Assembly: GCA_035906255.1 (NCBI GenBank) | Contig: JAMIFM010000011.1 | Span: 39,607-103,606 of the forward strand | Direction of reading: 5' to 3' | From: Bacteroidia bacterium | Lineage (GTDB): Bacteria; Bacteroidota; Bacteroidia; UBA8524 | Length of the DNA stretch: 64,000 bases | In this document: piece after piece, positions 1,339 through 57,270 of the stretch | Position numbering within the stretch: the first letter of the stretch is position 1 | Layout: every line of letters begins with the position of its first letter | Program-made: the position numbers and the translations under genes | Notes under the pieces: model-generated | Seen by the model: only the letters and a program-made list of their open reading frames with translations | Told to the model about the DNA's origin: nothing | Databases searched by the model: none

Positions 1339-1342
1339 ATAC

Positions 1343-1990: not shown

Positions 1991-2002
1991 CGGTTATCTG
2001 AA

Positions 2003-3818: not shown

Positions 3819-6332
3819 TTATTTGTTTTGGGGAAGACTTAATAAATTCACAAATAAGCGGTAAGCACCGGGTACACCGTCGGGCAATTCTCTAAAAAAC
3901 GAAAGTCCGGTATATACAAAGTTTCCTTTGCCGTATGGAGCAATAATCAAACTGCCTGTTTGTGCTTCTTCGTTAGGGTCGGCCATTTCAAGCACGTGTA
4001 TAAAATTTTCACTCAATTCGGTAGCAAAGTAAATACCGCGTTCTTGCACCCAACCTTCAAAATCAGCATCGCCAATCTTATTAGGATAAGTTAGCGCGGG
4101 ATGTTCAGGGTTCGGAAACTTAACCGAAGCTGTTTCATCAGTAACCCTATTACGTGAAATGGTAAAATCATAAGGACCTATTTTGCCTGCAAATGGCCCT
4201 ACCCTGCTGTTGGTGTTATATTGCACAATAAAATTACCGCCGTTGTTTATATACTCATTAATACGGCTATTAAGCTGCAATAAACGAGCGTTGGTATTGT
4301 AGGCGCGTATTCCCGTTACAATTGCTCCGTATTTACTTAAATCATCGTTGGCAAGCATATCATCAGTAAGCTCAACTACTTTGTAACCTATTAAACGTAA
4401 GCTATTGGCCACCTCATCACCCGCACCGGGTATGTAACCAACAGTAATGTTTGTTCTTTGCAAAGGAATACTCACCAATTTGGCTTCGGCATCACTTAAT
4501 GTAAACTGATAAGGAATATGGTCGTACTGCACCCGTTGTATGGCTTTGTTGTAGGTTTTCCCGTCTATTTTTAATGAAGCAATAACACTACTATTCACAC
4601 TGTTGGGTGTGGCTCGCAATATAGCTTCTAATACCTGCTCCTCACCTTTATTCGCAATAGTAAACGAAGCATTTTTTAAGGTGATTTGCCATCCTGCGGG
4701 TATCTCTGCTTTTAAAGTCCCCTGTACGTTATTCTTATTGGCTTTTACAATAAACTTAACAGTTTGTGGTGTAGTATCACCAAACACATACGATTGTTCA
4801 GCAATATTTACCGTAGCAGGCGGTAACACCTCCAACGGACGGTACACCTCACCTTTTACAGGGTCGGTATATTTATAAATTACAGGTTGTTTCAAAGCCA
4901 ACTCAAGCCCTGCAACATTCACATAAAAAGTAACGAATATTGACCCGCCGTTTTCAGGTTTGCCACGTAATAATTGATTGTTAACAGCATAAAGTCCCAA
5001 TGTATGACTGTCTTTTAACCAATAAGGGGTTGAAAATGCTGTATTTGCCGATAATTTTTCGGTGTGTGAATATGAGAACAGTTTAGGAAAATACTCCCCT
5101 TTTTTATTGATTGCGGAAAGCTGGTTAATAACGGTGTCGGTTTGCCCAAAATAATTTACTTTTTTAAGCTCTACTGCAATACTACTGTTTACTACCCACT
5201 GGGCATTGACAGACAGGTTTTCCCCCGGTATAGCAACATAATCAGTTGCCCCCGCCTCAATCCATATTCCGGCGCAAACCAATATCAAGTTTTCGGTTTC
5301 CTGCAATTTTTGGGCTTTCCAATACCGTAAAGCAGCATCGGTTTCGTCTAATTGTTGCAAGGTTTTATACAGCTCTGTCAATCCGTTTACGGATAGCTCA
5401 GGTGACATGGGCTTGTAATCGGCTATTATTTTATCAATTTGTTTCTGTATTTTTTTAGTTCCTGTCAATCTTGCCCACGTTTGATCGATACCTTCAAACA
5501 AATCACGGCTTACAGAGTCTCCTTTTATTTGCTGAAAGAACTCGATTACCTCGCCCCTGCCCCTTGCTGAGCCAAATCCTTGGCTTTTATGATTAGAGCG
5601 GCTGTCGGCGGCTATTTCCCCATATCCTTTACCCAACAACGGATTATACAGCCCCACATTAATTTGCATTTGCTCGGGTGCAGTAGTATTAGTAGTACCA
5701 AAATTATATGAGTTCCAAAACACGCGCTTGGCTTGCCATATTTGCACGTATTGCAGTTGTTCAGGGAAACGGGTAGGGTCGGCGGCGGCATCAAATGCTT
5801 CTTCGGCCAATATAGCAGAGGCTGTATGATGTCCATGACCGCCTCGTCCGTCGGTGGGAAAACGGCAAATAATCACATCAGGTCTAAAATTACGTATTAC
5901 CCACACCACATCAGCCAGTATGCTGTCTTTGTTCCAAAATCCAAAGGTTTCTTGCGGGTTTTTGCTATAGCCAAAATCATTAGCACGGGTAAAAAACTGT
6001 TCCGCCCCGTCGGTGCGACGTGCTGCCAATAACTCTTGGGTACGTATTAGCCCCAATTGCTCTCCCAACTCTTTACCAATCAGGTTTTGGCCACCATCAC
6101 CCCTTGTAAGCGAAAGATAGCCTGTTCGCAATTTTCGCTCGTTGGCCAAATAGGCCAGCAAACGGGTGTTCTCATCGTCAGGGTGTGCAGCAACGTATAA
6201 AACCGAGCCAACGGTGTTTAACTTGTTTAATTTTTGTAGTATTTCTGCTGAGTTGTACTGGGGCGAGTTTTGCGCCTTTACACATACACTGATAAGCAGA
6301 GTGAAGTATATAAAAAAAGTGCTACGTTTCAT
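3819..6332 (-). CDS. PIG-L/LmbE family N-acetylglucosaminyl deacetylase. Large multidomain protein with a signal peptide.
   Basis: The N-terminal VAAHPDDEN...HGHH motifs are typical of PIG-L/LmbE zinc deacetylases. 837 aa. The C-terminal region resembles a ThuA/GATase1-like fold (inference). Signal peptide MKRSTFFIYFTLLISVCVKA. Confidence 0.75.
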   Translation of the reverse strand: MKRSTFFIYFTLLISVCVKAQNSPQYNSAEILQKLNKLNTVGSVLYVAAHPDDENTRLLAYLANERKLRTGYLSLTRGDGGQNLIGKELGEQLGLIRTQELLAARRTDGAEQFFTRANDFGYSKNPQETFGFWNKDSILADVVWVIRNFRPDVIICRFPTDGRGGHGHHTASAILAEEAFDAAADPTRFPEQLQYVQIWQAKRVFWNSYNFGTTNTTAPEQMQINVGLYNPLLGKGYGEIAADSRSNHKSQGFGSARGRGEVIEFFQQIKGDSVSRDLFEGIDQTWARLTGTKKIQKQIDKIIADYKPMSPELSVNGLTELYKTLQQLDETDAALRYWKAQKLQETENLILVCAGIWIEAGATDYVAIPGENLSVNAQWVVNSSIAVELKKVNYFGQTDTVINQLSAINKKGEYFPKLFSYSHTEKLSANTAFSTPYWLKDSHTLGLYAVNNQLLRGKPENGGSIFVTFYVNVAGLELALKQPVIYKYTDPVKGEVYRPLEVLPPATVNIAEQSYVFGDTTPQTVKFIVKANKNNVQGTLKAEIPAGWQITLKNASFTIANKGEEQVLEAILRATPNSVNSSVIASLKIDGKTYNKAIQRVQYDHIPYQFTLSDAEAKLVSIPLQRTNITVGYIPGAGDEVANSLRLIGYKVVELTDDMLANDDLSKYGAIVTGIRAYNTNARLLQLNSRINEYINNGGNFIVQYNTNSRVGPFAGKIGPYDFTISRNRVTDETASVKFPNPEHPALTYPNKIGDADFEGWVQERGIYFATELSENFIHVLEMADPNEEAQTGSLIIAPYGKGNFVYTGLSFFRELPDGVPGAYRLFVNLLSLPQNK

Positions 6333-6539
6333 TGTTGTAACAGCAAATGTATTGATTTAAGGTTCTGTTGTAAATTATTTTGATACAAAGCCAATTATTG
6401 CTCACAAATCAGGCCAAAAATCAACATTACTTTTAGTTACAAACTTGTAAGCTAACTGGATTTTTTTTTAGTAAGTAAAAAATATTGTACATTTACGAGC
6501 GATTGTTCGTTTTATAAATAGCTAATTTCTTGTTGTAAT

Positions 6540-6917
6540 ATGAGGGAACTTATTACAAGAACTGAGACCATCACTCTTGATGAGTCGGGAATTGTTAGGT
6601 GCATCGTTCACAAAGATGCTTATATGGAATTAGAGGATGCCATTGAAAATGTTAAAGCAGTTGAAACTTTAACAAACGGCAAACCCATCCCTGTGTATGT
6701 TGATATCAGGTTATCAAAAGGCTCCTCAAAAGAAGCGAGGGCATATTTGGCCGGCTTTGAGGTTGCTGATGTACAGGTGGCTTGCGGCCTTCTTGTAGAT
6801 TCAATGTTATCTCAATTAATTGGTAATTTTTTTCTGGGACTTAATAAAACAAAGTTTCCTGTTAAACTTTTTAAAGACGAAGAAAAAGCAATGGAGTGGC
6901 TTAAAACATATTTATAG
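6540..6917 (+). CDS. Small STAS/SpoIIAA-like (DUF3478-type) protein, a putative partner-switching or sensor module for the downstream kinase.
   Basis: 125 aa. The stop TAG at 6915-6917 directly abuts the ATG of the histidine kinase. The fold call rests on the alternating beta/alpha pattern and the C-terminal ...KLFKDEEKAMEWLK motif typical of that family (recollection, not a search). Confidence 0.45.
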   Translation: MRELITRTETITLDESGIVRCIVHKDAYMELEDAIENVKAVETLTNGKPIPVYVDIRLSKGSSKEARAYLAGFEVADVQVACGLLVDSMLSQLIGNFFLGLNKTKFPVKLFKDEEKAMEWLKTYL

Positions 6918-7790
6918 ATGGAAATATTAGTTGAGAGGAAAAGGATTAATGAATTAATAGAAATGATAGGGGCTATGGCAAGTCTTGATTTCTCAAAGCG
7001 GATTGCTACCGAAATTACCGACCAGCCTATTGACGTAATGGCATACGGACTAAATATGCTAAGTGAAGAATTGGAAGCCAATATGGTTAGAAAATCAATG
7101 TTGGAAGAAACCAACCGCAATTTGGAACGGTTTGGTTTTACAGTGGCACATGATATAAAATCACCGCTAAGTTCTGCATATACCTTAACCACACTTATAG
7201 AAGATGAGTTGGAGGGGATTGAAAATCAAACCTTAAAAAACTACATCCAACTGCTTAAGGGAATAAATGAACAAACCCGCGAAATGGTAAATGGTATCTT
7301 GGATTACTCAAGAACCAATTACAACAACATGAAGAAAGAAGATGTAGATTTAAAAAGCCTTCTGGGTCAAATAAAACAAGAATACAGCGTTAACGAATCT
7401 ATACATATCACGTTTTCTGATAACCTGCCGATAGTAAATTATAACGCCTTTGCATTGAAACAGATTTTGGGTAACCTTATAAACAATGCTGTGAAACATA
7501 ACGATAAACCTCAATGTAAACTTGAAATACAACATATTGATAGGGAAACTTTTTATGAAATCTCCGTTACCGATAACGGACCGGGTATTTCTATAACTGA
7601 TAAAGAAAAGGTGTTTGATTTGTTTGAAAACCTTAGGAGTGATAAAGAAAACAGTCATGGTGTAGGCCTATCAATAGTAAAAAAATTGGTTACTCAGGCC
7701 AATGGCTCAGTATGGGTGGATACCAATAATAAAAGTGGGGCAAAATTTGTATTCACCATTGATAAACCTTCTGTTGCCATTGGTGTTTAA
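6918..7790 (+). CDS. Cytoplasmic sensor histidine kinase (HisKA + HATPase_c) with no TM or obvious sensor domain.
   Basis: H-box at VAHDIKSPL. N box (NLINNAVKHN), G1 (VTDNGPGI) and G2 (GVGLSIVKKL) are present. N-terminal ~60 aa are coiled-coil. No hydrophobic segments. Confidence 0.85.
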   Translation: MEILVERKRINELIEMIGAMASLDFSKRIATEITDQPIDVMAYGLNMLSEELEANMVRKSMLEETNRNLERFGFTVAHDIKSPLSSAYTLTTLIEDELEGIENQTLKNYIQLLKGINEQTREMVNGILDYSRTNYNNMKKEDVDLKSLLGQIKQEYSVNESIHITFSDNLPIVNYNAFALKQILGNLINNAVKHNDKPQCKLEIQHIDRETFYEISVTDNGPGISITDKEKVFDLFENLRSDKENSHGVGLSIVKKLVTQANGSVWVDTNNKSGAKFVFTIDKPSVAIGV

Positions 7791-13491: not shown

Positions 13492-13511
13492 GATTAAGAT
13501 TTAAACTTTAT

Positions 13512-13548
13512 AAACTAAAAAAGCCCCAAAACGGGGCTTTTTTAGTTT
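13512..13548. terminator. Bidirectional rho-independent terminator: 15-bp perfect palindrome aaactaaaaagcccc-aaaa-ggggctttttagttt.
   Basis: GC-rich stem flanked by A-runs and T-runs on both strands. Lies between convergent rhodanese and CapA-region genes. An identical copy is at 25716-25750. Confidence 0.6.
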
Positions 13549-16169: not shown

Positions 16170-16556
16170 TGTATGTAAGCCCCCCCTCTCCTAAGAGAAA
16201 CACAAAGGGTATATTATGCCAACCGCACCCTTCTGCAAGCTCAGGAGAACTGCCCCGCACTTGCTCAACTATCGTCATTGCGAGGAGGCCGTCTTCGGCT
16301 GACGTGGCAATCTGTTTGCAGCCCACCGTCAATGGTCAACAGTTTTTTAGTATTTAGATTTTAGTGTTTATACCAACGGATTGCTTCGGGAAGACCCTCG
16401 CAATGACGGGGAAGAGCAAGTCCCCACAGGGGATTTAGGGGTATTGTCATGCTGACGTAGGAAGCATTTTTGCGCAACGGGGTAACACAATTGTTATAAG
16501 GTTCTTCGCTGCGCTCAGAAGGACAGTATGGGTTCTTCGGCAAGTTCAGAATACAA
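16170..16556 (-). repeat. Partial mosaic repeat in reverse orientation (F', B', A', G' modules; C, D and E absent).
   Basis: Reverse complement of the segments in 1343-1990, for example caacggattgcttcgggaagaccctcgcaatgacggggaagagcaagtccccacaggggatttagg. Overlaps the spurious ORFs 16127-16357, 16144-16332 and 16361-16543. Confidence 0.75.
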
Positions 16557-25614: not shown

Positions 25615-25715
25615 TCCCCCCTTTAATATAGAGATGAAAGAAGCGGCATAAACGCTGCACTGCCTTATAATTTTATAGAAAACGGAAAAAATAGTTTTTT
25701 CTGTAGAGTTATTAA

Positions 25716-25750
25716 ACTAAAAAGCCCCAAAACGGGGCTTTTTAGTTTAA
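25716..25750. terminator. Second identical copy of the palindromic terminator aaactaaaaagcccc-aaaa-ggggctttttagttt.
   Basis: Identical over about 35 nt to 13512-13548. Directly downstream of the panB stop. Confidence 0.6.
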
Positions 25751-28336: not shown

Positions 28337-30352
28337 TTATTCTTTTATAAACTTTTGGGTGTAACTACCCTTGTTATCTACTGCTTGAATAATGTATAGC
28401 CCTGCGGGCAACGCCTGCAAAACCAACTCATTTGTATTTTGGGTAGATAATACTTTACGGCCTTCGGCATTAAAAACAATAATCCTGTTATATACTTCTC
28501 CGGTTCCGATAGTTATTGCTTCTTTTGCAGGATTAGGATATACAGCCAATGTGTTTGTTTTATTTGCTTGAATGCCCGTTACCACACTTTCAATAGGCAA
28601 ACGCCATACGCCTGCCCCTGAGCCTGCAAACAAAAACGAATCGCTTTGGTGAAATACATTTACCACCAAACCCTCGATGTTTTTGATATAGTTCCATTGC
28701 ATTGATGCGGTATCCCTGAACATAAACCCTGATGTAGTTGAAGCATACATACGGTTTTGTGTGAGCGACAACGAGTTGGCAAACGTAACTCCACCCAAAT
28801 AATAATGGCGAGGCCATACTAATCCATCTTCAGAAATATGGGTATCAATTCCAATTTTCAGCCAAAGTGTACCGTTTACCCTGCGGATAAAGAACACCTC
28901 ACGCCGCGGAATATTGGCAGGATTAACAATCGTAAACGAAAACCCATCGTTATCCGATGAGTAAATACCGCCCGTAGTACCTGCATACACAATTCCGTTA
29001 TCAAAATACAAATCGGTATAATCATAAGGGATAATATTATCGGCATATTTCACCCACACTTGCCCTCGGTTTGGGCTGCGGTATATACCGCCTTTGGTAA
29101 GTGCAAACAGTTGATTACCGATTTTTAACAACCGTAAAATGTTTTTATTACCCAGTCCGTTATTTGACGGTTCCCATAAAAGGTTATTACCTGCCACATA
29201 CACCCCACCTGTATCAGTACCCACAATCAACTTATCGGGATAGGTAGTAAACGAATTAATAACAGGCCACCCAACGTTGCCCACCTCTGTCCAATTATCA
29301 GCCGTCTTTTCAGTACGAAACAGCTTACCAAATGCCGTTGTATATACATACCCGTTTTGCTCCTCAAGATTAGTGATAGTGCCTGTAAGCAATTCATTGT
29401 TCATCGGTTTCCAAGTAATAGCAGCAATGCTACCCCTCAGCAACCCGTGTTTTTGAGTACCCGCAAACTTAATGGCCGCAGGTGTACTAAGAGCTGCATT
29501 CACAGTCATAGCCGAGTCCGTATTAAACTCCCAATCCAGCATCCAAGTTCGCCCTGTATCAAAGCTCTCATACAATCTATACGTATTATATGCAATCAAC
29601 ATCCCATTATGGGCGGTGATGCCTGTAATGTTTTTCACCGTAGTATCAACCGTCCAGTTGTTACCGTTATTTCTCGACACCCAAATACTGCCCCCTGCTA
29701 AAAACAAAGTACTATCAATAATCTCCAACTGAGCGCACTGACTGCAACTGCCTGCAACGCTCACATTTTGCCAGCTTTGCCCCCCATCGTCCGATTTAAA
29801 CAACCCTGCATTATAAGTCAATGCCCAAAACCTTGTGCCGTCGGTTTCCAAGTCCAACACATTGTTATCCAACATTCCGTTGTTGGCTTTCCCCCAACTT
29901 TGACCGTTATCGGTTGAGCGAAATACGCCGTAACTGGAAGTAGCAGCCATTAATACCCCATTGGCCGAAGCAAAAGAGGTGATGGGTTTTTCAATAGGCA
30001 GTCCGCTGTTTATAGCCGTCCAACTGTTGCCCTTATCGGTTGATTTATATACGCCCCGTAATGTAGTAGCCACCAATAACCCGTTGTGATAGCTGAGCGA
30101 ATAAATGGTAAAGGTATTCACTCCGTTGTTAGTGGCTTCCCACGGTGAAAAAGGCTGGTTTGATGCCCTGAAAATCCCGCTGTTTGCCGTACCAATCCAC
30201 ACAACGGTATCGTTGGTGGCAATGCAGGTAACTGTGCCCGCCGGACCATAAAAATCAGGTACAGGGCCTTTCATTCGTTGCCACTGCGCATTTGCAAAAG
30301 TGCTTACCAAACAAAACAGCAGCAAAGCATATAAACGGTATAGGTGTTGCAT
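28337..30352 (-). CDS. BNR/Asp-box repeat beta-propeller protein (sortilin/Ycf48-like) with a T9SS C-terminal domain.
   Basis: Six or more S-x-D-x-G-x-(T/S)-W repeats (STDKGNSWT, STDNGQSWG, SDDGGQSWQ, SRNNGNNWT, SFDTGRTWM, SPNRGQVWV). Signal peptide. C-terminal VYPNPA...GLYIIQAVDNKGSYTQKFIKE. Confidence 0.75.
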   Translation of the reverse strand: MQHLYRLYALLLFCLVSTFANAQWQRMKGPVPDFYGPAGTVTCIATNDTVVWIGTANSGIFRASNQPFSPWEATNNGVNTFTIYSLSYHNGLLVATTLRGVYKSTDKGNSWTAINSGLPIEKPITSFASANGVLMAATSSYGVFRSTDNGQSWGKANNGMLDNNVLDLETDGTRFWALTYNAGLFKSDDGGQSWQNVSVAGSCSQCAQLEIIDSTLFLAGGSIWVSRNNGNNWTVDTTVKNITGITAHNGMLIAYNTYRLYESFDTGRTWMLDWEFNTDSAMTVNAALSTPAAIKFAGTQKHGLLRGSIAAITWKPMNNELLTGTITNLEEQNGYVYTTAFGKLFRTEKTADNWTEVGNVGWPVINSFTTYPDKLIVGTDTGGVYVAGNNLLWEPSNNGLGNKNILRLLKIGNQLFALTKGGIYRSPNRGQVWVKYADNIIPYDYTDLYFDNGIVYAGTTGGIYSSDNDGFSFTIVNPANIPRREVFFIRRVNGTLWLKIGIDTHISEDGLVWPRHYYLGGVTFANSLSLTQNRMYASTTSGFMFRDTASMQWNYIKNIEGLVVNVFHQSDSFLFAGSGAGVWRLPIESVVTGIQANKTNTLAVYPNPAKEAITIGTGEVYNRIIVFNAEGRKVLSTQNTNELVLQALPAGLYIIQAVDNKGSYTQKFIKE

Positions 30353-30455
30353 GGGTCAGTAAAAATAAGGCTTTTACCTATAAGACAGTTAATACGCTCA
30401 AAAAGCTGTACCCGTTTTATTTTTTTACAATCGATTACCAAACCGCCCTTCTTAT

Positions 30456-31290
30456 CGCACCCTTCGACAAACTCTATCCTTAAACAGGCTCAGGATGGCA
30501 GCCGCACTGCTACGTTGTTGGTGGAGTTCCCTTTAGGGATTGAACAGAGCTTGTTGAAATAGAATTTAGGGGCTGTTTGACTCACCCCTGATTTTTGTTT
30601 TGGTCGATTTTCTGATATTCGCCCCTCTCTTACAAAGAGAGGGGAAGTGTTGGGTTATCAGACAAGGTTGATATGTTTTGGGTGAGTTAAATGTTTGTCT
30701 GCCGCACTCGCACAACTATCGTAATTGCGAAAAACCGCTTTTGGGTTTTGAAGCAATCCGTTTGACACCTCCCTTAGTCCCTCCTTACCAGCCCACTAAC
30801 CATCCAAGGAGGGAAACAGCCGCACCCTTCGGCATTCTAAGGATGGCAGCCGCACTGGTACGTTGTTGGTGAAGTTCCCTTTAGGGCTTGAACAGAGCTT
30901 GTCGAAGTATAATTTAGGGACTGTTTGACTCACCCCTGATTTTTGTTTTGGTCGACTTTCTAATATTCGCCCCTCTCGTACAAAGAGAGGGGCGAATATC
31001 AGGCAAGGTTGAGCTGTTTTGGGTGAGTTAAATGTTTGTCTGCCATACTTGCTTCACTATCGTCATTGCGAGGAAGCCTTCTTCGGCTGACGTGGTAATC
31101 TGTTTGCAGGTCAACAGTCCACCGTCAATGGTCAACAGTTTTTTAGTATTTAGATTTTAGTGTTTATACCAACGGATTGCTTCGGAAGACCTCGCAATGA
31201 CGGGGAAGAGCAAGTCCCCACAGGGGGATTTAGGAGTATTGTCATGCTGACGTAGGAAGCAGCTTATCCCGTTTTGATAACACAATTTAA
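30456..31290 (-). repeat. Extended mosaic-repeat array (about 835 bp) in reverse orientation, with a local tandem duplication of the D'-C' modules.
   Basis: 30480-30660 and 30830-31010 are near-identical (caggatggcagccgcactg...ttccctttaggg...tgactcacccctgatttttgttttggtcga...cccctctc(g/t)tacaaagagagggg). They are followed by B', A' and G' fragments. Overlaps the spurious ORFs 30678-30872 and 30344-30562. Confidence 0.8.
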
Positions 31291-31396
31291 CCGCTCTTAA
31301 TCATTACTTTCCAACCGAAGGGTTGAGCCTGTTTGGTATAAAATACGGCACCACTACCCCAAAAAACCGATAATTTAGCGAAAAAAATTTACCACG

Positions 31397-31915
31397 TTGA
31401 AACCCCTGCTTGCTATTATAACTGCTGTTTTTGTAGTTTACGGCTGTACCGATAAGCTTCCGTTGCTCGAAATTAACGCTACGGCAAAGGTTACTGACGG
31501 TAATGCTATCCACAACCTTATACAAACAGGAACATACACCCCGCTTACGGATAGTGCTCAACTGGCTAAGTATCTTAGTGAGGTTGAAACTGCCGATGCC
31601 TTGCAAAACAGTCTTACCAAAACATACAGTTTGTATAAAGATGTGGGCACGATGGACGGCTTTTTGGTAAGGGTATTATTGCTTACTCAAAACAAAAACG
31701 GTAAGGAGTGCTATACCTACGAATTGCGCAGTTATGATAAAGCAGGTAAACTGATTGATGTATTTGAGTTTGCGGTGTGGGACGGTAACGCCAAGCGTTA
31801 TTGCTCATCAACGCTTAGCAAGCAATGGATTATTAACCGTACTTGTGATACTACAAAAGATGTGTGGCAATTAATAAACAACGGGCATTTTGTGGCTTCG
31901 TCCTATAACAAATAA
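31397..31915 (+). CDS. Hypothetical lipoprotein (TTG start as called in the ORF track).
   Basis: Lipobox AVFVVYGC. 172 aa. No motifs. Confidence 0.45.
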   Translation: MKPLLAIITAVFVVYGCTDKLPLLEINATAKVTDGNAIHNLIQTGTYTPLTDSAQLAKYLSEVETADALQNSLTKTYSLYKDVGTMDGFLVRVLLLTQNKNGKECYTYELRSYDKAGKLIDVFEFAVWDGNAKRYCSSTLSKQWIINRTCDTTKDVWQLINNGHFVASSYNK

Positions 31916-32005: not shown

Positions 32006-33244
32006 TTGAACTTTAAAGATACTTTAAATCTCTCGCTTGACTCGATAAAGATAAACAAGCTGCGCACCGTAATTACCGCACTTATTATTGCTATCGGTAT
32101 TATGGCCTTAGTGGGTATTTTATCTTCTATTGATGCCATGAAGGTGTACTTAACCAAAAGTTTCTCAGAAATGGGGGCTAATACCTTTAGCATCAAAAAC
32201 AGGGGCGGTAACTTTAAAATGGGTGGCCCCGGCAAGCGTATCAATTACCGCAAAATATCGTATGAAGAAGCCGTTGATTTCAGGCAGGCTTATAACTTCC
32301 CTTCGGCCATCGTTTCAGCATCTGTAAACGTATCGTTTGCCAGCACGGCCAAATACCAATCACGTAAAACCAATCCAAACACATTGGTTTTGGGGGTTGA
32401 TGAAAACTACTTAACTGTATCAGGCTACAAAATTTCAAAAGGCCGTAATATTACTATCGGCGATATGGAAGCCATGACCCCTGTGGCTATTATAGGCACT
32501 GATATTGTGAGCAAACTGTTTCCCAACAAAGAAAACCCTATTGATAAAGAAATATCAGTGGGCGGGGTGAAAATGCGGGTAATTGGGGTGCTTGAATCAA
32601 AAGGAAACTCAGTAGGATTTGGCGGTGGAGATAAGCTTATTTATGTGCCGCTTACATTTGCCAAATTTAGGCTGATGAATATGCCTCCCTCTTATGCCCT
32701 TTCGGTAATGGTGAACGACCCTACTATGATTGACCCTGCTATGTCTGAAGCCGAAGGTGTTTTTCGTAAAGTGCGGAAGGTAAATGCCTTTGATGATAAT
32801 AATTTCCAGTTGACGAAAAGCGACGGCTTGGCACAAGAGTTTATTCAAAACCTTAGTATGCTCACCTTTGCAGCTACTATTATTGGGGCAATTACCATTT
32901 TTGGAGCGGCCATCGGTTTAATGAATATTATGCTGGTTACAGTTACCGAGCGTACCCGCGAAATTGGCATCCGCAAATCATTAGGAGCTACCCCTGCTAT
33001 CATCCGCAAGCAATTCTTATACGAAGCCGTAACCATTTGTCAATTGGGCGGTGCAGGCGGTATTGTTTTGGGTATTTTAATAGGCAATATTATTTCGGGA
33101 GCACTGGGCGTAGGGTTTATTATGCCTTGGGCACCCATTGTGATTGCTTTAATACTTTGCACATTGGTTGGACTGGCTGCGGGCTACTACCCTGCCCAAA
33201 AAGCTGCTAAACTCGACCCTATTGAAGCTCTTAGGTTTGAATAA
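32006..33244 (+). CDS. ABC transporter permease, FtsX/MacB-like family (permease only, no adjacent ATPase).
   Basis: N-terminal TM, large periplasmic domain, then the C-terminal 3-TM FtsX bundle (RTREIGIRKSLGA motif). 412 aa. Confidence 0.8.
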   Translation: MNFKDTLNLSLDSIKINKLRTVITALIIAIGIMALVGILSSIDAMKVYLTKSFSEMGANTFSIKNRGGNFKMGGPGKRINYRKISYEEAVDFRQAYNFPSAIVSASVNVSFASTAKYQSRKTNPNTLVLGVDENYLTVSGYKISKGRNITIGDMEAMTPVAIIGTDIVSKLFPNKENPIDKEISVGGVKMRVIGVLESKGNSVGFGGGDKLIYVPLTFAKFRLMNMPPSYALSVMVNDPTMIDPAMSEAEGVFRKVRKVNAFDDNNFQLTKSDGLAQEFIQNLSMLTFAATIIGAITIFGAAIGLMNIMLVTVTERTREIGIRKSLGATPAIIRKQFLYEAVTICQLGGAGGIVLGILIGNIISGALGVGFIMPWAPIVIALILCTLVGLAAGYYPAQKAAKLDPIEALRFE

Positions 33245-33298
33245 CCGCTCAGCTACGCCACCTCTTTACTTTTTGATTTTTAATCACTTATTAGTTAA

Positions 33299-33460
33299 CA
33301 TCAGCATGACAATACCCCTAAATCCCCTGTGGGGACTTTACCAACGACGGGCAAGTGCGGCTGTTTCCCTCCTTGGGTGGTTAGTGGGCTGGTAAGGAGG
33401 GACTAAGGGAGGTGTCAAACGGATTGCTTCAAAACCCAAAAGCGGTTTTTCGCAATGACG
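33299..33460 (+). repeat. Short mosaic repeat copy (A fragment plus E module).
   Basis: tcagcatgacaatacccctaaatcccctgtgggg followed by ...ggctgtttccctccttgggtggttagtgggctggtaaggagggactaagggaggtgtcaaacggattgcttcaaaacccaaaagcggtttttcgcaatgacg. Overlaps the spurious ORF 33168-33395. Confidence 0.75.
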
Positions 33461-33618
33461 AAAATCGAAACACAAGCTCAAATCGAACATCGTTAAATCC
33501 TGAGATTATTTTATTTCCAAAGAAAATTGGCCTTCGAAGTACCGGCTAACTAAAACTAATCCCACTTCTTCAATAAGGAAAATCAAAATAACTTTTAAGT
33601 GTTTCAAATAATTTATAA

Positions 33619-34551
33619 TTGCAACCCAGGAGTTGCACTATGACACCAATATTTGAAGAATTTACCAAAAGTTATTTAATAGCGAAAAAAGAATCGTTTG
33701 CAAACAATGAAACTGCTAATTTATTTAGACACAAATTACCTCAACAAGTAAATCAATTAATCAATAGCAACAGTAGATACAAAATTGCTGGTTCAGTCGG
33801 AAAAGGTAATTGGGCAGACTGCCCTTGGATTGCAATTCTAGATTTGCTAATAACTGATAGCCCACAGTCAGGATATTATCCAGTATTCCTATTTCAGGCA
33901 GACATGAAGGGATTTTATTTATCTTTAAATCAAGGCGTCACTGAAATTAGAAATTACTACAAACACAACACAAAAGAGGTTTTATCTGTAAGAGCTACGG
34001 ATTTTAGGGCTAAAGTTAGTACTGATAATTCTCTTTTGAAGAAAATTGAACTTAACTCTAAAACTGAAAATGCAAAACTATATGAAGCAGGGAATATTTT
34101 TGCCAAATATTATAGCTCAAGTGAGCTCCCTGACAATAAAACCCTTTCCAATGACATACTTTATTTCTTAAACCTATACGATGAACTAATCAATAATGAT
34201 CAAAATATAAATGAAAACGACGAATTAACGGCTTATGAAAGTAAGAAACGTAAATTGCACTATCGGGTTGAAAGAAATAGATATATTTCTTTAAAAGTAA
34301 AAAAGAGAAAGGGATATACCTGTGAAGTTTGTGATTTCAACTTTACAACTAAATATGGTGCTTTAGGTAAAGACTTTATTGAAACTCATCATCTAATACC
34401 TATTTCAACACTAGAACTAGGGAAGTTCAAAGTTAATTTAGCTGATGATTTTGCTGTTTTATGTAGCAACTGTCATCGCATGATTCATAGACTACAAGAT
34501 ACAAGTAATATTAAAGCATTAAGGGCCATAGTTAAAAACAATAGAAAATAA
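33619..34551 (+). CDS. MrcB-N (DUF3578)-HNH nuclease, a type IV (modification-dependent) restriction-like protein.
   Basis: The N-terminal region has the DUF3578/MrcB_N hallmark KIAGSVGKGNWADCPWIAILD. The C-terminus is HNH (CEVCDF...ETHHLIPIS...CSNCHRMIH). The gene is visibly AT-richer than its neighbours. The true start is probably the Met at 33640. Confidence 0.65.
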   Translation: MQPRSCTMTPIFEEFTKSYLIAKKESFANNETANLFRHKLPQQVNQLINSNSRYKIAGSVGKGNWADCPWIAILDLLITDSPQSGYYPVFLFQADMKGFYLSLNQGVTEIRNYYKHNTKEVLSVRATDFRAKVSTDNSLLKKIELNSKTENAKLYEAGNIFAKYYSSSELPDNKTLSNDILYFLNLYDELINNDQNINENDELTAYESKKRKLHYRVERNRYISLKVKKRKGYTCEVCDFNFTTKYGALGKDFIETHHLIPISTLELGKFKVNLADDFAVLCSNCHRMIHRLQDTSNIKALRAIVKNNRK

Positions 34552-34935
34552 CTACCCCGCCAACTCCTCAAACAATTGATTAAGTTTCTTTTCAGGGTTG
34601 GTGCAAAGGCCGGGGTGCACTTTTGAAGTTTGCAATACCGTGCTGCGGTTGGCTGTGAGCCAACGGAACCGTGAGGGTAAATCCAGCTGGGCAATGGGGC
34701 CGCCATCTGCATCGCCGCGACAAACCTTCTCAAATCCTTGTAAATAATTTTCTACTTCCGTAGGTTCAATAACAGGGCAAAAAGCCTTTAAACGGTCGGC
34801 ATCCAGTACATAACGCATTTGTAAAAACTTATGCTTTTTGCAAAACAATATTACCCCCACATTAATAAACTCTTCGCGCTCCACACGGGGCACAATGCGT
34901 ATCACCGCATACTCAAACAAGTGGTTATCTTGCAT
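34552..34935 (-). CDS. DUF3037 domain protein.
   Basis: 127 aa. Conserved N-terminal block FEYAVIRIVPRVEREEFINVGVILF is typical of DUF3037 (recollection). Overlaps the upstream kinase gene by 11 nt. Confidence 0.55.
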   Translation of the reverse strand: MQDNHLFEYAVIRIVPRVEREEFINVGVILFCKKHKFLQMRYVLDADRLKAFCPVIEPTEVENYLQGFEKVCRGDADGGPIAQLDLPSRFRWLTANRSTVLQTSKVHPGLCTNPEKKLNQLFEELAG

Positions 34936-35755
34936 TTTCTGCCTCCTTCACAAAAATATCCGATGCCTGCAAACGTGCGGTTAAAAAACCGTTATATACC
35001 TCACGGCGGCTTTCGGCCGTTTCGTCAATAGTGTTTTCAAGCAACCACTCATCGGGTACTTGTGCCACAATTCCCCTGATGATTTCAGGGGTAAGTATCC
35101 GCCTAAACTCATCATTCACACTTTCAAGTTCAGTCGCTCGGCGCAACAACACATGGTCTTTCACTTGCACAAACGGTTTTTTAGCTTGCTCCTCCCAATT
35201 GTCCCACGAGTGGTGAAAATACAGCGATGCACCGTGGTCTATCAACCACAACTCTTTATGCCACCATAGCATATTGGTATTGCGAGCCGTGCGGTCAACA
35301 TTCGTAAGCAAACTATCCAACCACACAATTTTAGAAGACAATAACGGGTCTATCAGCGTTACCGCAGGGTCGTAGGTCATACTTCCTTGCAGGTAATGTA
35401 CGCCCAAATTCAACCCCTCACTTTTGCGCAGCAATTCTTGTATTTCCTCATCGCCTTCGGTGCGACCAAAATCCGCATCCAAATGGGCAAATACCATTTC
35501 GGGTACTTTAAAACCTAACACTCGGGCAATTTCTCCGCCTATAAAATCAGCAATCAACGATTTCACCCCCTGCCCTGCCCCTCTAAACTTAAGCACATAC
35601 AAAAAATCATCATCAGCCTCGGCAATGGCAGGCAAAGAACCGCCTTCGCGAAGCGGGGTAACGTACCGCACAACATTTACATGGCGGGGAGATGTAAGCA
35701 CTTTTGTCATCACAATAAATTTTTCATCTACAGCGTACTGTGTATGATAAGGCAA
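34925..35755 (-). CDS. HipA-like / PI3-4-kinase-superfamily atypical kinase.
   Basis: Catalytic-loop-like TNVDRTARNTN and IDHG (DFG-like) motifs spaced as in HipA/PI3K-fold kinases. 276 aa. Glycine-rich loop LKFRGAGQG. Confidence 0.5.
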   Translation of the reverse strand: MPYHTQYAVDEKFIVMTKVLTSPRHVNVVRYVTPLREGGSLPAIAEADDDFLYVLKFRGAGQGVKSLIADFIGGEIARVLGFKVPEMVFAHLDADFGRTEGDEEIQELLRKSEGLNLGVHYLQGSMTYDPAVTLIDPLLSSKIVWLDSLLTNVDRTARNTNMLWWHKELWLIDHGASLYFHHSWDNWEEQAKKPFVQVKDHVLLRRATELESVNDEFRRILTPEIIRGIVAQVPDEWLLENTIDETAESRREVYNGFLTARLQASDIFVKEAENAR

Positions 35756-36947: not shown

Positions 36948-37100
36948 GTCAGTATGTTCAACCTTTTGTTCCCCTGTCATTCCGAGACGCAGCGAGGAAA
37001 CTTATTGCACGCGTGTTAACAAAACGCGATAAGTTGCTTCCTACGTCAGCATGACACGGCTATACGTCATTCCGAGGGTCTCTCCGAAGCAATCACACAT
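36948..37100 (+). repeat. Short mosaic repeat (G module plus degenerate A fragments).
   Basis: cctgtcattccgagacgcagcgaggaaacttattgcacgcgtgttaacaaaacgcgataagttgcttcctacgtcagcatgaca...cgtcattccgagggtctctccgaagcaatc matches the G/A modules of 1343-1440. Confidence 0.6.
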
Positions 37101-43521: not shown

Positions 43522-43537
43522 TACTTCCTAAGCCTAC

Positions 43538-44200
43538 TAAAGGGTGCGGCGGTGGTTGGTAAGGAGTGATTAAATTATATTAACAAACGGGATAAGATGC
43601 TTCCTACGTCAGCATGACAATACTCCTAAATCCCCTGTGGGGACTTTACCAACGACGGGCAAGCGCGGCTGCCCTCCTGAGAATGCCGAAGGGTGCGGCT
43701 GTTTCCCTCCTTGGGTGGTTAGTGGGCTGGTAAGGAGGGACTAAGGGAGGTGTCAAACGGATTGCTTCAAAACCCGAAGATGGTTTTTCGCAATGACGAT
43801 AGTTGAGCGAGTGCGGCAGACAACATTTAACTCACCCAAAACAGCTTAACCTTGTCTGATAACCCAACACTTCCCCTCTCTTTGTAAGAGAGGGGCGAAT
43901 ATCAGAAAGTCGGCCAAAACAAAAATCAAGGGTGAGTCAAACAGCCCCTAAATTCTACTTCAACAAGCTCTGTTCAAACCCTAAAGGGAACTTTACCAAC
44001 GACGTACCATGCGGCAGATTTCCTGAGCTTGCCGAAGGATAGTGCCTGCTAAAGGGTGCGGCGGTGGTTGGTAAGGAGTGATTAAATTATATTAACAAAC
44101 GGGATAAGATGCTTCCTACGTCAGCATGACAATACACCTAAATCCCCTGTGGGGACTTGCTCTTCCCCGTTATTGCGAGGCCTATCCGAAGCAATCAGCT
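43538..44200 (+). repeat. Mosaic repeat array (G, A, E, B-end, C, D modules plus a second G-A copy), about 660 bp.
   Basis: The 60-nt block cctactaaagggtgcggcggtggttggtaaggagtgattaaattatattaacaaacgggataagatgcttcctacgtcagcatgacaata occurs twice (43538 and 44052). Internal modules are near-identical to 1343-1990 and 51325-51915. Overlaps the spurious ORF 44126-44365. Confidence 0.8.
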
Positions 44201-45548: not shown

Positions 45549-45881
45549 TTGCACATGAACCCATACCCAAGCCCGCAGGCTGCCCTTGATGATTTTAGCA
45601 GGGTGATTGACCAACTTGCTGCCGATTTACAATTGTATGCCGCCCGACAGCAGCCCAACTACACCTACATGGATAAGCAAAATATGCTGATACGCCACCT
45701 TACCGAGATATACAATGGCATTACTACCCTGCAACACTATGATGCTTGGACGGCTGTTGAAACCCGAATGCTAAGCTTTGTGCGGCAAGACGCTAACCTT
45801 TGCGGACACATGATACGCTTGCGCACAAAACCCGAAGGGAATAATTTTTCGCTGATTGGATATGACCCGTTTAACCCCTAA
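45549..45881 (+). CDS. Hypothetical small protein.
   Basis: 110 aa ORF with reasonable codon usage. No motifs. Confidence 0.35.
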   Translation: MHMNPYPSPQAALDDFSRVIDQLAADLQLYAARQQPNYTYMDKQNMLIRHLTEIYNGITTLQHYDAWTAVETRMLSFVRQDANLCGHMIRLRTKPEGNNFSLIGYDPFNP

Positions 45882-45882
45882 C

Positions 45883-45990
45883 TTATACTTCGACAAGTTC
45901 TGTACAAGTCTTAAAGGGAACTTTACGCACTACGAACGAGTGTGGTAGTTTCCTGAGCTTGCCGAAGGGTGCGGAGGAAGGCTTCGGAAA
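45883..45990 (+). repeat. Isolated D-module copy of the mosaic repeat.
   Basis: cttatacttcgacaagttctgtacaagtcttaaagggaactttacgcactacgaacgagtgtggtagtttcctgagcttgccgaagggtgcgg matches the D module (1749-1850, 51668-51760). Confidence 0.7.
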
Positions 45991-48811: not shown

Positions 48812-48835
48812 GCTTATACCTCCCTGTTCTTCTTA

Positions 48836-49030
48836 CCGCACCCTTTAGCAGGCACTATCCTTCGGCATTCTCAGGATGGCAGCCGCGCTTGCCCGTCGTT
48901 GGTAAAGTCCCCACAGGGGATTTAGGGGTATTGTCATGCTGAGCGATAGCGAAGCACCTTATCCCGCTTTGTGAACACAGTTGTTATAAGGTTCTTCGCT
49001 GCGCTTAGAAGGACAGAGAGGGGCGAAGTT
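48836..49030 (-). repeat. Mosaic repeat in reverse orientation (D'-end, A', G').
   Basis: cagcaggcactatccttcggcattctcaggatggcagccgcgcttgcccgtcgttggtaaagtccccacaggggatttaggggtattgtcatgctga...gttcttcgctgcgcttagaaggacag. Confidence 0.75.
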
Positions 49031-51279: not shown

Positions 51280-51324
51280 TTTTAGAGTTTATTATTTAGA
51301 GTTTAGTTACCTGTACCGCTCCTC

Positions 51325-51915
51325 TGTCAGCATGACAATACCTCTAAATCCCCTGTGGGGACTTGCTCTTCCTCGTCATTGCGAGGTCTTCCGAAGCAAT
51401 CCGTTGGCATAAACACTAAAATCTAAATACTAAAAAACTGTTGACCATTGACGGTCGACTGCTGACCTGCGAGCAGATTGCCACGTCAGCCGAAGACGGC
51501 CTCCTCGCAATGACGATAGTTGAGCGAGTGCGGCAGACAACATTTAACTCACCCAAAACATCCCAACCTTGCTTGATAACCCAACACTTCCCCTCTCTTT
51601 GTAAGAGAGGGGCGAATGTCAGAAAGTCGACCAAAACAAAAATCAGGGGTGAGTCAAACAGCCTCCCTAAATTCTACTTCGACAAGCTCTGTTCAAGCCC
51701 TAAAGGGAACTTCAACAACGACGTACCAGTACGGCTGCCATCCTGAGAATGCCGAAGGGTGCGGCTGTTTCCCTCCTTGGGTGGTTAGTGGGCTGGTAAG
51801 GAGGGACTAAGGGAGGTGCCAAACGGATTGCTTCAAAACCCAAAAGCGGTTTTTCGCAATGACGATAGTTGAGCAAGTGCAACAGCCATCTTGAGCCTGC
51901 CGAAGGGTGCGGTTG
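51325..51915 (+). repeat. Second complete mosaic repeat copy (A-B-C-D-E-F), about 590 bp.
   Basis: Collinear and highly similar to 1400-1990. Overlaps the spurious ORFs 51416-51634, 51441-51746 and 51616-51810. Confidence 0.85.
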
Positions 51916-51926
51916 CCCTAAAAAAC

Positions 51927-57226: not shown

Positions 57227-57242
57227 CAAAACAAACAACAAT

Positions 57243-57270
57243 TAAAAGCCGCAGTACGCGGCTTTTTTGT
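57243..57270 (+). terminator. Terminator after the tRNA (aaaagccgcagtacgcggctttttt).
   Basis: Inverted repeat gccgc...gcggc plus T-run. Confidence 0.6.

Follow-up and report, generated by a model that had tools for sequence, protein, structure and literature searches.

Between a BNR-type gene and a lipoprotein gene, which are transcribed divergently, a non-coding gap holds a pair of D'-C' modules in tandem, set within a larger cluster of repeated modules. The question that this locus raises is whether the pair was amplified in place, as the preliminary description held, or is older or inherited. From an analysis of the whole 64-kb stretch of DNA around the locus (the window, to which all coordinates refer), we believe that the D'C' duplication is probably an old or inherited product of unequal exchange between two copies of a short motif, Y, of a modular dispersed element.

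The array and its tandem units

The array and its flanks have the following features.

28337-30352, minus strand: BNR/Sortilin-type secreted protein with a T9SS C-terminal sorting domain (Pfam: Por_Secre_tail 6e-11, Sortilin-Vps10 4e-9)
30353-30442, no strand: unique region upstream of the BNR-type gene, outside the repeat; synteny with all relatives ends at 30442
30443-30477, plus strand: 5' terminus ('leader'), a degenerate CCGCCCTTCTTA followed by an X-like motif
30478-30730, plus strand: tandem unit 1, made of the end of X, D', C' (hairpin ~30611-30662) and Y
30701-30730, plus strand: junction Y motif, with the C' end on its left and E' on its right (recombinant L2R1)
30720-30819, plus strand: E' module, made of REP-like hairpin alpha (30720-30760, CGTC/CGTA tag) and a hairpin with a 9-bp stem (30778-30814)
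30820-30856, plus strand: X linker motif CCGCACCCTTCGGCAttCTaAGGATGGCAGCCGCACT, which recurs at module boundaries in all copies
30826-31071, plus strand: tandem unit 2, made of the end of X, D', C' and Y, 88.2% identical to unit 1
30960-31002, plus strand: C' hairpin of unit 2, a near-perfect 18-bp palindrome (94% complementary inverted repeat)
31042-31071, plus strand: second Y, in the parental context C' end to B' (L2R2)
31061-31202, plus strand: B'-A', with hairpins beta (31061-31102, plus) and gamma (31173-31202, minus)
31203-31306, plus strand: G' module and variant 3' tail, matching 44196-44076, 43646-43564, 48905-48982, 37056-37013 and 1383 onwards
31397-31915, plus strand: putative lipoprotein gene of 172 aa, starting MKPLLAIITAVFVVYGC, with a lipoprotein-like signal
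32006-33244: MacB/FtsX permease gene, next after the lipoprotein gene

Both flanking genes are what they had been said to be, as judged by the domain matches and the lipoprotein-like signal, and the BNR-type gene has an orthologue in the relative L002 that is 91% identical. About 90 bp beside the BNR-type gene lie outside the array, are conserved in relatives with quite different arrays and probably hold the core promoter of that gene. Within the array, no sigma-70-like promoter or terminator signal rose above shuffled sequences in a scan that does not cover Bacteroidota promoters. The cluster had been placed at 30456-31290; its location was right and its true extent is slightly larger, from 30443 to about 31306. 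The leader aligns with CTGTCCTTCTTAC.. in the relative L007 and with CTGTTCTTCTTACC.. at 48826-48840, and it looks like an inverted form of ..TCAGAAGGACAG, in which three other copies in the window (A, B and H, below) end on their 3' side. E' is the most conserved module, at 93-99% between copies and free of indels. The hairpins fold significantly better than shuffled sequences, with -11.8 kcal/mol (z -4.6) for C' of unit 1, -17 kcal/mol (z -7.1) for C' of unit 2, which has CGAA where the other four copies have AAGTGTTGGGT, and -23.6 kcal/mol (z -3.6) for the long-range stem CGTCATTGCGAGG/CCTCGCAATGACG of B'-A'.

A direct tandem repeat is indeed present at this place, window 30478-30730 against 30826-31071. 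A repeat search recovered it as 30478-30644 against 30826-30992 (167 nt, 90%, spacing 348), continuing as 30656-30745 against 30997-31086 (90 nt, 81%, spacing 341), and blastn aligned 30489-30730 with 30837-31071 at 87.2% over 242 nt with an E value of 6.5e-83, which excludes chance by far. The strings quoted in the preliminary description, including the cgtacaaag/cttacaaag difference, were all found, as were E' between the units and B'-A'-G' after them. The units, however, measure about 250 bp rather than about 180 bp, and together with E' they give a period of 348 bp, present in 1.7 copies at 30443-31306. The array was missed by Tandem Repeats Finder, since the period is long and the units are too diverged.

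It is in the age of the duplication that our reading departs most from the earlier one. The units had been called near-identical, with a few substitutions between them, whereas over 246 aligned positions they differ by 29 mismatches and a 7-nt indel (88.2% identity), just as any dispersed pair does: all dispersed D'C' copies in the window are 87.3-92.4% identical to one another, and the unit 1/unit 2 pair falls within that range. The other copies compared with the units lie 13-30 kb away and match them at 87-92%; the copy at 51.5 kb (copy I) is closer to each unit (91.7-91.8%) than the units are to one another. Informative sites are star-like, with three uniting unit 1 and copy F and two uniting units 1 and 2, in a phylogeny that is weak because it contains five D'C' units only. 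Unit 2 carries 18 private differences. Two derived characters are common to both units, a C>T change at 'ACGTTGTTGG' and one extra T, and these could reflect a common origin or later gene conversion. Given that the identity of the two units is no higher than that of pairs across the window, we take the event to be old. The units are neither nearly identical nor mutual closest relatives, and on these grounds a recent local amplification is not supported.

A mosaic element with its probable exchange products in one window

The array is one of nine clusters, A-I, which together occupy 3,616 bp, or 5.6% of the 64-kb window, and all of which are intergenic, non-coding and modular.

1344-1989, minus strand: copy A, single-period canonical element, both Y in parental contexts
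16214-16531, plus strand: copy B, zero-period reciprocal deletion product X-Y-B'-A'-G', Y context L1R2
30443-31306, plus strand: copy C, the array with the duplication, 1.7 periods
33298-33461, minus strand: copy D, E' and short form, which has lost 30 nt between two GCCGCAC heptamers and has a 258 to 584 junction
36974-37056, minus strand: copy E, G'/tail fragment
43532-44196, minus strand: copy F, composite, with a C' to E' junction at 43788-43816 and a 512-bp periodicity of its own (115 nt, 98%)
45875-45974, minus strand: copy G, fragment of X and partial D'
48829-49017, plus strand: copy H, complete 189-bp short form of leader, partial D' and G' tail
51320-51921, minus strand: copy I, single-period canonical element, Y in parental contexts

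The element is a modular, mosaic, hairpin-rich dispersed repeat in which short linker motifs join the modules, three of which are REP-like palindromes with a CGTC tag. We rejected a coding role, since the open reading frames within copies are short, lie on a strand that varies by copy and are broken by 1-, 2- and 7-nt indels; the indels that set copies apart do not have lengths divisible by three. Among the window copies no orientation consistent with that of the neighbouring genes was seen.

The motif Y, GCCGCACTyGCTCAACTATCGTCATTGCGA (31 nt), is composed of a lead sequence, a CGTC tag and the left stem of a REP-like hairpin. Each of the single-copy elements (1344-1989 and 51320-51921) contains two Y in the same orientation, 348 bp apart. 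When the array is mapped to a single-copy reference, it reads as segment 216-457 joined to segment 81-658, and the 29 nt at 30702-30730 match both 429-457 and 81-109; the offset between these positions, 429 - 81 = 348, is the repeat period. Copy I matches 30696-31257 at 91% over 571 nt. The parental Y contexts, X|Y|E' and C'|Y|B', are those of copies A and I; the duplication-type context C'|Y|E' occurs in C (30715) and F (43788), and the reciprocal deletion-type context X|Y|B' in B (16268), which maps to reference 52-109 and 429-697 with a 29-nt overlap in Y. The number of periods runs accordingly from 0 in B through 1 in A and I to 1.7 in C. As the array period equals the spacing of the two Y and the junction lies inside Y, we read the array as a product of unequal exchange between Y copies. 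Within 64 kb the window holds a natural record of a single exchange that is unusual in its completeness, with both parental contexts, the duplication and the reciprocal deletion.

Whether other loci show the same duplication can be answered with a partial yes. The locus at 43.6-44.06 kb (copy F) has the order leader-D'C'-E'-D' and the C' to E' junction, and matches the array over 424 nt at 89.6%. Since F has the same junction and the units of the array are not mutual closest relatives, the exchange need not have occurred at the array locus. Further deletions end in short direct repeats, namely the 30-nt deletion between GCCGCAC heptamers in D and the 258 to 584 deletion in D, F and H, whose junction in copy H, GTTGGTAAAGTCCCCACAGGGG, is common to D and F. 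We considered GCCGCAC as a specific boundary signal and rejected it, as its excess (19 observed, 6.5 expected) comes merely from its presence inside repeated modules.

Routes to the duplication and variation among relatives

We propose that two same-orientation Y copies, 348 bp apart, mispaired and so gave rise to the 1.7-copy tandem array. This could have come about by replication slippage, by misaligned pairing of sister strands or by homologous recombination of one element copy with another. At about 31 nt, Y is a short stretch of homology for RecA-dependent recombination, a point against this reading. On this view the event is old, or else the array was inherited from an element variant that was already rearranged; the units have diverged by 12% since then, and a template switch has reshaped one hairpin, C' of unit 2. 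For the exchange at Y, the enzymology is something that we infer. Exchange of this sort is commonplace in the dynamics of bacterial repeats. In place of a fresh local amplification, we see the product of an old exchange across a motif-bounded period, and the array as one structural variant, among several, of a mosaic repeat.

The arrays of relatives at the orthologous site differ from this one. In L006 (SRR21773987, 94% related) D' adjoins the same BNR flank, and in L007 (SRR17786457, 93% related) X-Y-B' adjoins it. In the sister species the orthologous site holds a 315-bp unit at 2.2, 1.2, ~0.5 and 0.16 copies in strains that are 96-97% identical, and in one of these strains (L009) an IS110 element is inserted in Y; this strain-level variation in copy number and the insertion extend the record of exchange found in the window. 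Copy number and composition thus differ at one and the same site. The earlier proposal that modules can be re-assorted or duplicated in situ stands as far as exchange between short internal repeats is concerned, given the junction in the 31-nt motif, the reciprocal deletion within the window and the differences at the orthologous site in relatives; a local amplification in the sense of a recent event confined to this locus is not supported.

Gene order departs from that of the sister species exactly at the array, with synteny blocks ending at window 30442 and 31362, and in the sister species the BNR-type and lipoprotein genes lie ~27 kb apart on one contig. This would be expected if the array were a hybrid, formed either by two elements that landed side by side or by ectopic out-of-register recombination at Y. 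By the ectopic route, a BNR-locus element (leader-D'-C'-Y) recombining with a lipoprotein-locus element (Y-E'-X-D'-C'-B'-A'-G') would bring about the duplication and the novel adjacency of the two genes in a single event. In favour of a hybrid, the units have diverged as far as unrelated copies, unit 1 is slightly more often united with F than with unit 2 (3 versus 2 sites), the order leader-D'C'-E' is also found at F, leader-D' lies beside the BNR flank independently in L006, and L024 shows a REP end beside the lipoprotein flank. However, the lipoprotein gene of the sister species has an element-free upstream gap of 185 bp, and the element at its BNR site is in the opposite orientation, so that no ancestral state with two suitably oriented partners is documented. 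We regard a hybrid origin as unlikely, though worth keeping in view; since the crossover would still lie at Y, it is a variant of unequal exchange between Y copies and not a separate mechanism.

The tagged hairpin itself could be the site at which an enzyme acts, with a RAYT-like Y1 transposase or an IS110-type RNA-guided recombinase cutting and rejoining the CGTC-tagged hairpin, and REP-bounded cassettes being excised, duplicated and moved without general recombination. All resolved module-exchange junctions lie in or beside the tagged hairpin, and copy D begins exactly at the tag. The IS110-family element of L009 sits in Y as ..CTATCGTCATC|IS|..TTCATTGCGAAAAACC, and for the IS110 element in WBUH01000012.1 the target would be ..ATCGTCAT|TGCGA... 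IS110/IS1111 elements target REPs, with the choice of site made by a bridge or seek RNA (PMC1525189, PMC11208160, PMC11187229), and REP arrays have been suggested to arise through processing by RAYTs (PMC3733652). However, no transposase, recombinase or IS110 homologue was found among the ~49 open reading frames of the window, CGTC REPs are reported without a dedicated transposase (PMC3733652), and bridge recombination needs a donor site instead of a pair of targets. The position of the crossover is resolved only to within ~20 nt, and homology-driven exchange fits it equally well. We therefore consider site-specific exchange at the tag rather improbable, and the broader notion that Y is a recombination site, at which cassettes of 300-500 bp bounded by REPs are cut, duplicated and shuffled, is similarly improbable. 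If Y were such a site, the enzyme could be an undiscovered partner of CGTC REPs or an IS110-type recombinase that targets Y in the sister strain, and Y sites might be the starting points of the rearrangements that the genome shows at clusters C, D and F. We know of no enzyme that mobilises CGTC-tagged REPs. A family whose hairpins of this kind bound exchangeable cassettes and fall at synteny breakpoints could be well suited to the study of how repeats spread and reshape genomes.

It is very improbable that the array is an artefact of assembly, in which a contig joined or expanded through repeats would make the two-unit structure or the gene adjacency unreal. Short-read assemblies of the same strain do break at both edges of the array: among Logan contigs from the same or close strains none spans it, those of the same strain end at 30448 and 31242 of the window, and an identical lipoprotein is encoded on contigs breaking at 31242. 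Read sets SRR18360465 and SRR18360466 come from this strain. Exact stretches of up to 79 nt are common to the array and other copies, and the gene order at the array is unlike that of relatives. However, an expanded or collapsed repeat predicts identical units, whereas here there are 29 differences and an indel, with private changes in each unit. Within the window the junction segment occurs once (the sequence around 30703-30724, 'CGCACAAC', has no exact match in other window copies), F repeats this type of junction and B has its reciprocal, and the source contig passes through eight other clusters without anomaly. In practice, the clusters break short-read assemblies of this lineage and flag sites at which the gene order of relatives cannot be presumed.

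Comparison with known repeat systems

The element family seems to be undescribed, while its general kind, a BIME- or BOX-like mosaic repeat, is known. An exact-pattern scan for the D'C' core (GACTCACCCNNGATTTTTGTTTTGG) gave 0 matches in the genome-contig and metagenome-contig collections, and the D'C' module is either confined to the clade or absent from the collections scanned. A scan for the alpha hairpin gave 0 matches in viral contigs and, in metagenomes, one distant contig (L005) with that hairpin only and a TGTC tag. The whole array had no BLAST match among plasmids and phages. The element is lineage-specific. In Rfam, nothing relevant reached the gathering threshold in the window and nothing relevant came up in the array at E <= 5, the window giving only a tRNA elsewhere and a chance snoR9 hit (E = 3), and a known structured RNA was set aside on this account; sequence strings looked up in the literature matched unrelated primers and nothing else. 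A CRISPR array was rejected because the 'spacers' are themselves repeated, and integron attC and group II intron readings because the defining feature of each is missing.

CGTC REPs are short extragenic palindromes with a terminal CGTC (or TGTC/CCTC) tag, an A-T start to the stem, a 3-nt unpaired tail with the consensus CCA, and a single stem of 8-9 bp with a 4-5-nt loop; head-head dimers with 20-100-bp spacers predominate, clusters and head-tail pairs are rare or negligible, and they are found in Bacteroidetes with no linked transposase (PMC3733652). We searched the window for the pattern tag-ATTGC-N10-32-GCAAT-tail, and all 12 matches, of three types, fell inside clusters. The tag is CGTC in 10 of the 12 and CGTA in the other two, and all units read tag-ATTGC...GCAAT-CCG/CTG, with the same A-T stem start and 3-nt tail. 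The plus-strand beta and minus-strand gamma hairpins form a head-head dimer in C, B and I, with their CGTC tags outward and a 70-nt spacer. In contrast to the single stem of CGTC REPs, alpha and beta are 41-42 nt long and have an outer stem of 5 bp and a second stem inside it, as well as internal loops (5 + 6 bp and a 7-nt loop in alpha, similarly in beta); the nearest to the published form is gamma, whose loop has 4 nt and whose stem has 5 + 2 bp. Moreover, the units of the element always lie within a collinear mosaic of 0.2-0.85 kb, and alpha and beta stand head-to-tail, 341-348 bp apart.

Like the BIMEs of enterobacteria, the element is an extragenic mosaic of REP hairpins and other motifs, which varies in composition by locus and strain and often lies just 3' of genes. 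BIMEs have regularly spaced REPs in alternating orientation (PMC2817692), whereas the modules of the element keep one order and one orientation and consist mostly of non-REP sequence. The BOX element of Streptococcus pneumoniae is modular, with fixed ends, hairpins and an internal module present in 0 to several tandem copies that vary by strain (PMC3049150). The forms with 0, 1 and about 2 periods and the strain-variable copy number show a similar organisation here, by analogy only, as phylum and sequence are unrelated. The scale differs, with ~45 bp for boxB against a period of 348 bp (315 bp in the sister species), and BOX has terminal inverted repeats and target-site duplications, neither of which is clear in the element. 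By the same analogy, the element may be near-neutral or selfish DNA, and its hairpins may influence the transcripts next to them, as those of REP, BIME and BOX do.

Unlike MITEs and REPINs, the element shows no target-site duplication, in that no flanking direct repeat was found at the nine loci, and no partner insertion sequence was found in the window. It resembles them in being non-coding, dispersed and intergenic, and in having a deletion-derivative short form at D, F and H. A further likeness may lie in a candidate terminal inverted repeat of 11-12 nt, in which CTGT(C/T)CTTCTTA, the 5' end of H and of the copies in L006 and L007, is the counterpart of TCAGAAGGACAG, the 3' end of A, B and H. 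This repeat is degenerate in C, and A, B, G and I lack it at their 5' ends.

A diverged tandem repeat within a dispersed element

The intergenic gap between the BNR-type gene and the lipoprotein-like gene is 1,044 bp long and contains a direct repeat in which 30478-30644 matches 30826-30992 (167 nt, 90%, spacing 348), continued by 30656-30745 against 30997-31086 (90 nt, 81%, spacing 341). With blastn, 30489-30730 aligned to 30837-31071 at 87.2% over 242 nt (E 6.5e-83), and MAFFT alignment of the full units gave 88.2% identity (217 matches, 29 mismatches and a 7-nt indel). The features are as follows.

28337-30352, minus strand: BNR-type gene, with Sortilin/BNR-type matches and a T9SS Por_Secre_tail domain
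30478-30730: unit 1
30826-31071: unit 2
31397-31915, plus strand: lipoprotein-like gene, N-terminus MKPLLAIITAVFVVYGC, followed by a MacB/FtsX permease gene

The preliminary description was right about the repeat and its position, the E' module between the units, B'-A'-G' after them, and a BNR T9SS gene and a lipoprotein gene on either side. However, its wording that the units are near-identical and differ by a few substitutions is inaccurate.

Self-comparison of the window placed the array (C) among nine clusters of one repeat family, which sum to 3,616 bp or 5.6% of the window.

Clusters of the repeat family in the window
A: 1344-1989
B: 16214-16531
C: 30448-31296
D: 33298-33461
E: 36974-37056
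F: 43532-44196
G: 45875-45974
H: 48829-49017
I: 51320-51921

All nine are intergenic and the majority begin 6-54 bp from a stop codon; C alone lies between divergent gene starts, and no consistent orientation relative to neighbouring genes was found across the nine. Copies A and I represent the single-copy ('canonical') form of about 600-650 bp, which the right-hand 570-596 nt of C match at 87-91%. The copies differ by 1-, 2- and 7-nt indels and share no conserved ORF, an Rfam search gave no match for the family, and none of the roughly 49 window ORFs is a transposase or recombinase. The window genes are ordinary housekeeping genes together with several T9SS cargo proteins, which place the organism in Bacteroidota. 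Beyond its own clade the family had no match in any collection searched, except for one isolated hairpin in a distant metagenomic contig (MDTD01118556.1, L005:3925-4117). There a TGTC-tagged alpha hairpin stands by itself beside a 23-bp perfect inverted repeat, GTCATCCTGAGCGAAGTCGAAGG, around 91 nt, similar in sequence to the X linker.

Module order is fixed: X linker (CCGCACCCTTCGGCAnnCTCAGGAnnGCAGCCGCAC), Y with E', X, D'-C', Y with B'-A'-G', and tail. Three modules carry REP-like palindromes built as CGTC-ATTGC-(inner stem-loop)-GCAAT-CCG/CTG, namely alpha (41 nt, in E'), beta (42 nt, in B') and gamma (30 nt, inverted, in A'). A scan of the 64 kb for this pattern gave 12 matches, every one of them within a cluster. 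Against shuffled sequences, z-scores were -4.6 and -7.1 for the C' hairpins of units 1 and 2, -3.0 for the 9-bp-stem hairpin of E' and -3.6 for the long beta...gamma stem; by the same comparison D' is not structured. E' is much better conserved between copies (93-99% identity, indel-free) than its neighbour D'C' (87-92%, indels present). This conservation (30720-30819 and its equivalents in A, D, F and I) is module-specific, and the sister species also retains part of E'. Some copies have candidate termini, 5' CTGT(C/T)CTTCTTA and 3' TCAGAAGGACAG; no target-site duplication is visible at the element ends.

The C' hairpin of unit 2 (30960-31002) is a near-perfect 18-bp palindrome, whereas in the remaining four copies it is a quasi-palindrome; CGAA, which complements the 5' arm, stands in place of 11 nt (AAGTGTTGGGT). 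The replacement bears the signature of a template-switch (quasipalindrome) mutation and implies that the C' hairpin forms in vivo.

Junctions in Y and the age of the duplication

With the single-copy element as reference (window 1300-2040, reverse-complemented), C aligns first to 216-457 and then to 81-658. The 29 nt at 30702-30730 fit reference 429-457 and also 81-109, and 429 - 81 gives 348, the observed repeat period. Common to both mapping blocks is Y, GCCGCACTyGCTCAACTATCGTCATTGCGA, composed of lead sequence, tag and left stem of the REP-like hairpin, which occurs in the element once ahead of E' and once ahead of B'.

Contexts of Y
A and I: X-Y-E' and C'-Y-B', parental
C (30715): C'-Y-E', duplication
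F (43788): C'-Y-E', duplication
B (16268): X-Y-B', reciprocal deletion

Together these contexts make up the full set expected from unequal exchange. Diagnostic bases (ACTCGC towards C', ACTTGC towards X) locate each crossover to within about 20 nt inside Y. In D, a 30-nt deletion is bounded by two GCCGCAC heptamers, and D, F and H have in common a junction between the similar small hairpins GTTCCCTTTAGGG and GTCCCCACAGGGG; these variants too end in short direct repeats. Given the set of Y contexts and these repeats, misaligned pairing of the two Y copies is the best-supported mechanism. Slippage, exchange between sister strands, or recombination of one element copy with another could each have paired them out of register and produced the duplication.

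That the CGTC-tagged hairpin is instead a site-specific recombination point shuffling REP-bounded cassettes seems to us very improbable, though this reading gains slightly because an IS110-family insertion in a sister-species contig, L009, sits in Y (PMC1525189, PMC11208160). The insertion (L009:5757-7042; GCA_008933805.1, WBUH01000012.1) lies in the array upstream of the BNR-type gene, and its ORF (6061-7017) has Pfam DEDD_Tnp_IS110 and Transposase_20 domains. Its insertion point, ..CTATCGTCATC/IS/..CACAGTTCATTGCGAAAAACC, is inside the Y/CGTC-REP motif, the same motif that holds the duplication and deletion junctions of the window; no homologue of this element was found in the window.

A reading as recent local amplification is unsupported: at 88.2% the units are no closer than other pairs among the five D'C' units of the window (87.3-92.4%), and each is 91.7-91.8% identical to copy I. 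Parsimony-informative sites are sparse and in conflict (three join unit 1 with F, two join units 1 and 2), and most differences are private. Nor is the arrangement wholly peculiar to this site, since locus F has the leader-D'C'-E'-D' order of C over 424 nt at 89.6%, with the identical C'-to-E' junction type; the preliminary description had named such a second occurrence as evidence against local amplification, and F supplies it in part. Since the units are no closer than other pairs and F shares order and junction, the duplication either took place in situ long ago or was already present in a variant that later reached this locus. Locus F also has a 512-bp periodicity of its own, in which a 115-nt G'-tail-plus-leader segment (43532-43646 against 44044-44158) is 98% identical; this repeat is much more recent than the duplication in C.

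Three findings make an assembly artefact unlikely: the units differ at 29 sites, each with private changes; the sequence at the junction has no second copy in the window; and both recombinant types are found elsewhere in it. However, the array is not crossed by any independent assembly, same-strain contigs ending at 30448 and 31242. The duplication is real but ordinary.

Variation at the same site in related genomes

Related genomes, reached via a thioredoxin-reductase search, fall into three groups by identity in the BNR-gene region: the window's own clade (L001 100%, L006 93.9%, L007 92.8%); a sister species, S1 (L008 = L002, L009, L011-13, L017/18 and L020), 96-97% among members and 83.5% to the window; and L010 with L021. 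In every genome an element lies at the identical point, ...ATTAyCAAAA/CTGTC..., about 90 bp upstream of the BNR-type gene. D' adjoins the BNR flank in L006, as in the window; in L007, X-Y-B' is found there without D'C'. In S1 the element is inverted relative to the window and its content varies among strains. The S1 315-bp unit is a different module set with only the E' hairpin in common, and the two L008 units are 92.6% identical.

Copies of the 315-bp unit in S1
L008:6316-6994: 2.2 copies
L009:5276-5639: 1.2 copies
L020:6901-7071: about 0.5 copies
L017:7023-7070 (L017/18): 0.16 copies

The S1 strains are direct evidence that the number of units in arrays of this family rises and falls at one fixed position, which supports the more general proposal that modules are re-assorted or duplicated in situ.

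The gene between dnaE and the array also varies within one species, being an SduA_C (Shedu-type) protein (L017/L018:5479-6930), a 500-aa ORF (L008:4742-6244) or a 280-aa ORF (L009:4205-5047), so the array borders a small variable island. Two of these assemblies, GCA_943370295.1 (L002/L008, 'Agrobacterium sp. 719_389') and GCA_030285445.1 (L017, 'Oscillatoria amoena NRMC-F 0135'), carry T9SS cargo genes and have best hits named Bacteroidetes or Bacteroidia, and their contigs are thus clearly Bacteroidota; the discrepancy suggests a wrongly labelled MAG and a contaminant from co-culture.

In S1 the lipoprotein-MacB pair lies about 27 kb from the BNR-type gene, with an element-free upstream gap of 185 bp. 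When the window was compared with L008/L022 (CALRQL020000013.1), all synteny blocks ended at repeat-cluster edges: 30442 and 31362 (C), 33246 (D) and 44252 (F). Such shifts of gene order at clusters are compatible with a hybrid array made by ectopic exchange between two loci, an origin that we nevertheless consider unlikely. The 33.3-44.2 kb segment has another place and orientation in the sister species, where MacB precedes a 149-aa ORF, Pro_CA and HgmA_N. Between D and E, 33619-35755 encodes an MrcB_N-domain protein and a DUF3037 and HipA-like kinase pair, which looks defence- or toxin-related.

Likeness to known repeats and possible function

CGTC-tagged REPs have been reported in Bacteroidetes without a dedicated transposase (Di Nocera et al., PMC3733652). 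The units here similarly have the CGTC tag, a stem opening with A-T pairs and a 3-nt tail, and beta and gamma, 70 nt apart, form a head-head dimer within the described spacer range of 20-100 bp (PMC3733652). However, the stems here are bipartite and longer, outside the published stem and loop dimensions, and the units are always set in a long collinear mosaic. In its workings the element resembles BOX elements: end modules enclose an internal period that occurs 0, 1 or about 2 times, the number differing among strains (PMC3049150). Like BIMEs, the element is a mosaic of REPs and other motifs, but it does not have the alternating REP orientation that is the BIME hallmark. Clear MITE-like termini and target duplications were not seen.

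The array is upstream of both genes, with about 90-100 bp of unique flank left beside each start. The BNR-side flank is kept in relatives with wholly different arrays; on the lipoprotein side a short conserved motif, GTATAAAATAcGG, precedes the gene and lies outside the array. A scan, not modelled on Bacteroidota promoters, found no sigma-70-type promoter or terminator above chance in the array. Most likely the element is selfish or near-neutral DNA whose hairpins may act on transcripts, in the way suggested for REP, BIME and BOX elements (PMC3733652, PMC3049150). Elsewhere in the window, a terminator-like hairpin, AAAAAGCCCCAAAACGGGGCTTTTT, occurs downstream of unrelated genes at 13508-13542 and 25709-25743 and, in weaker form, at 57233-57267.
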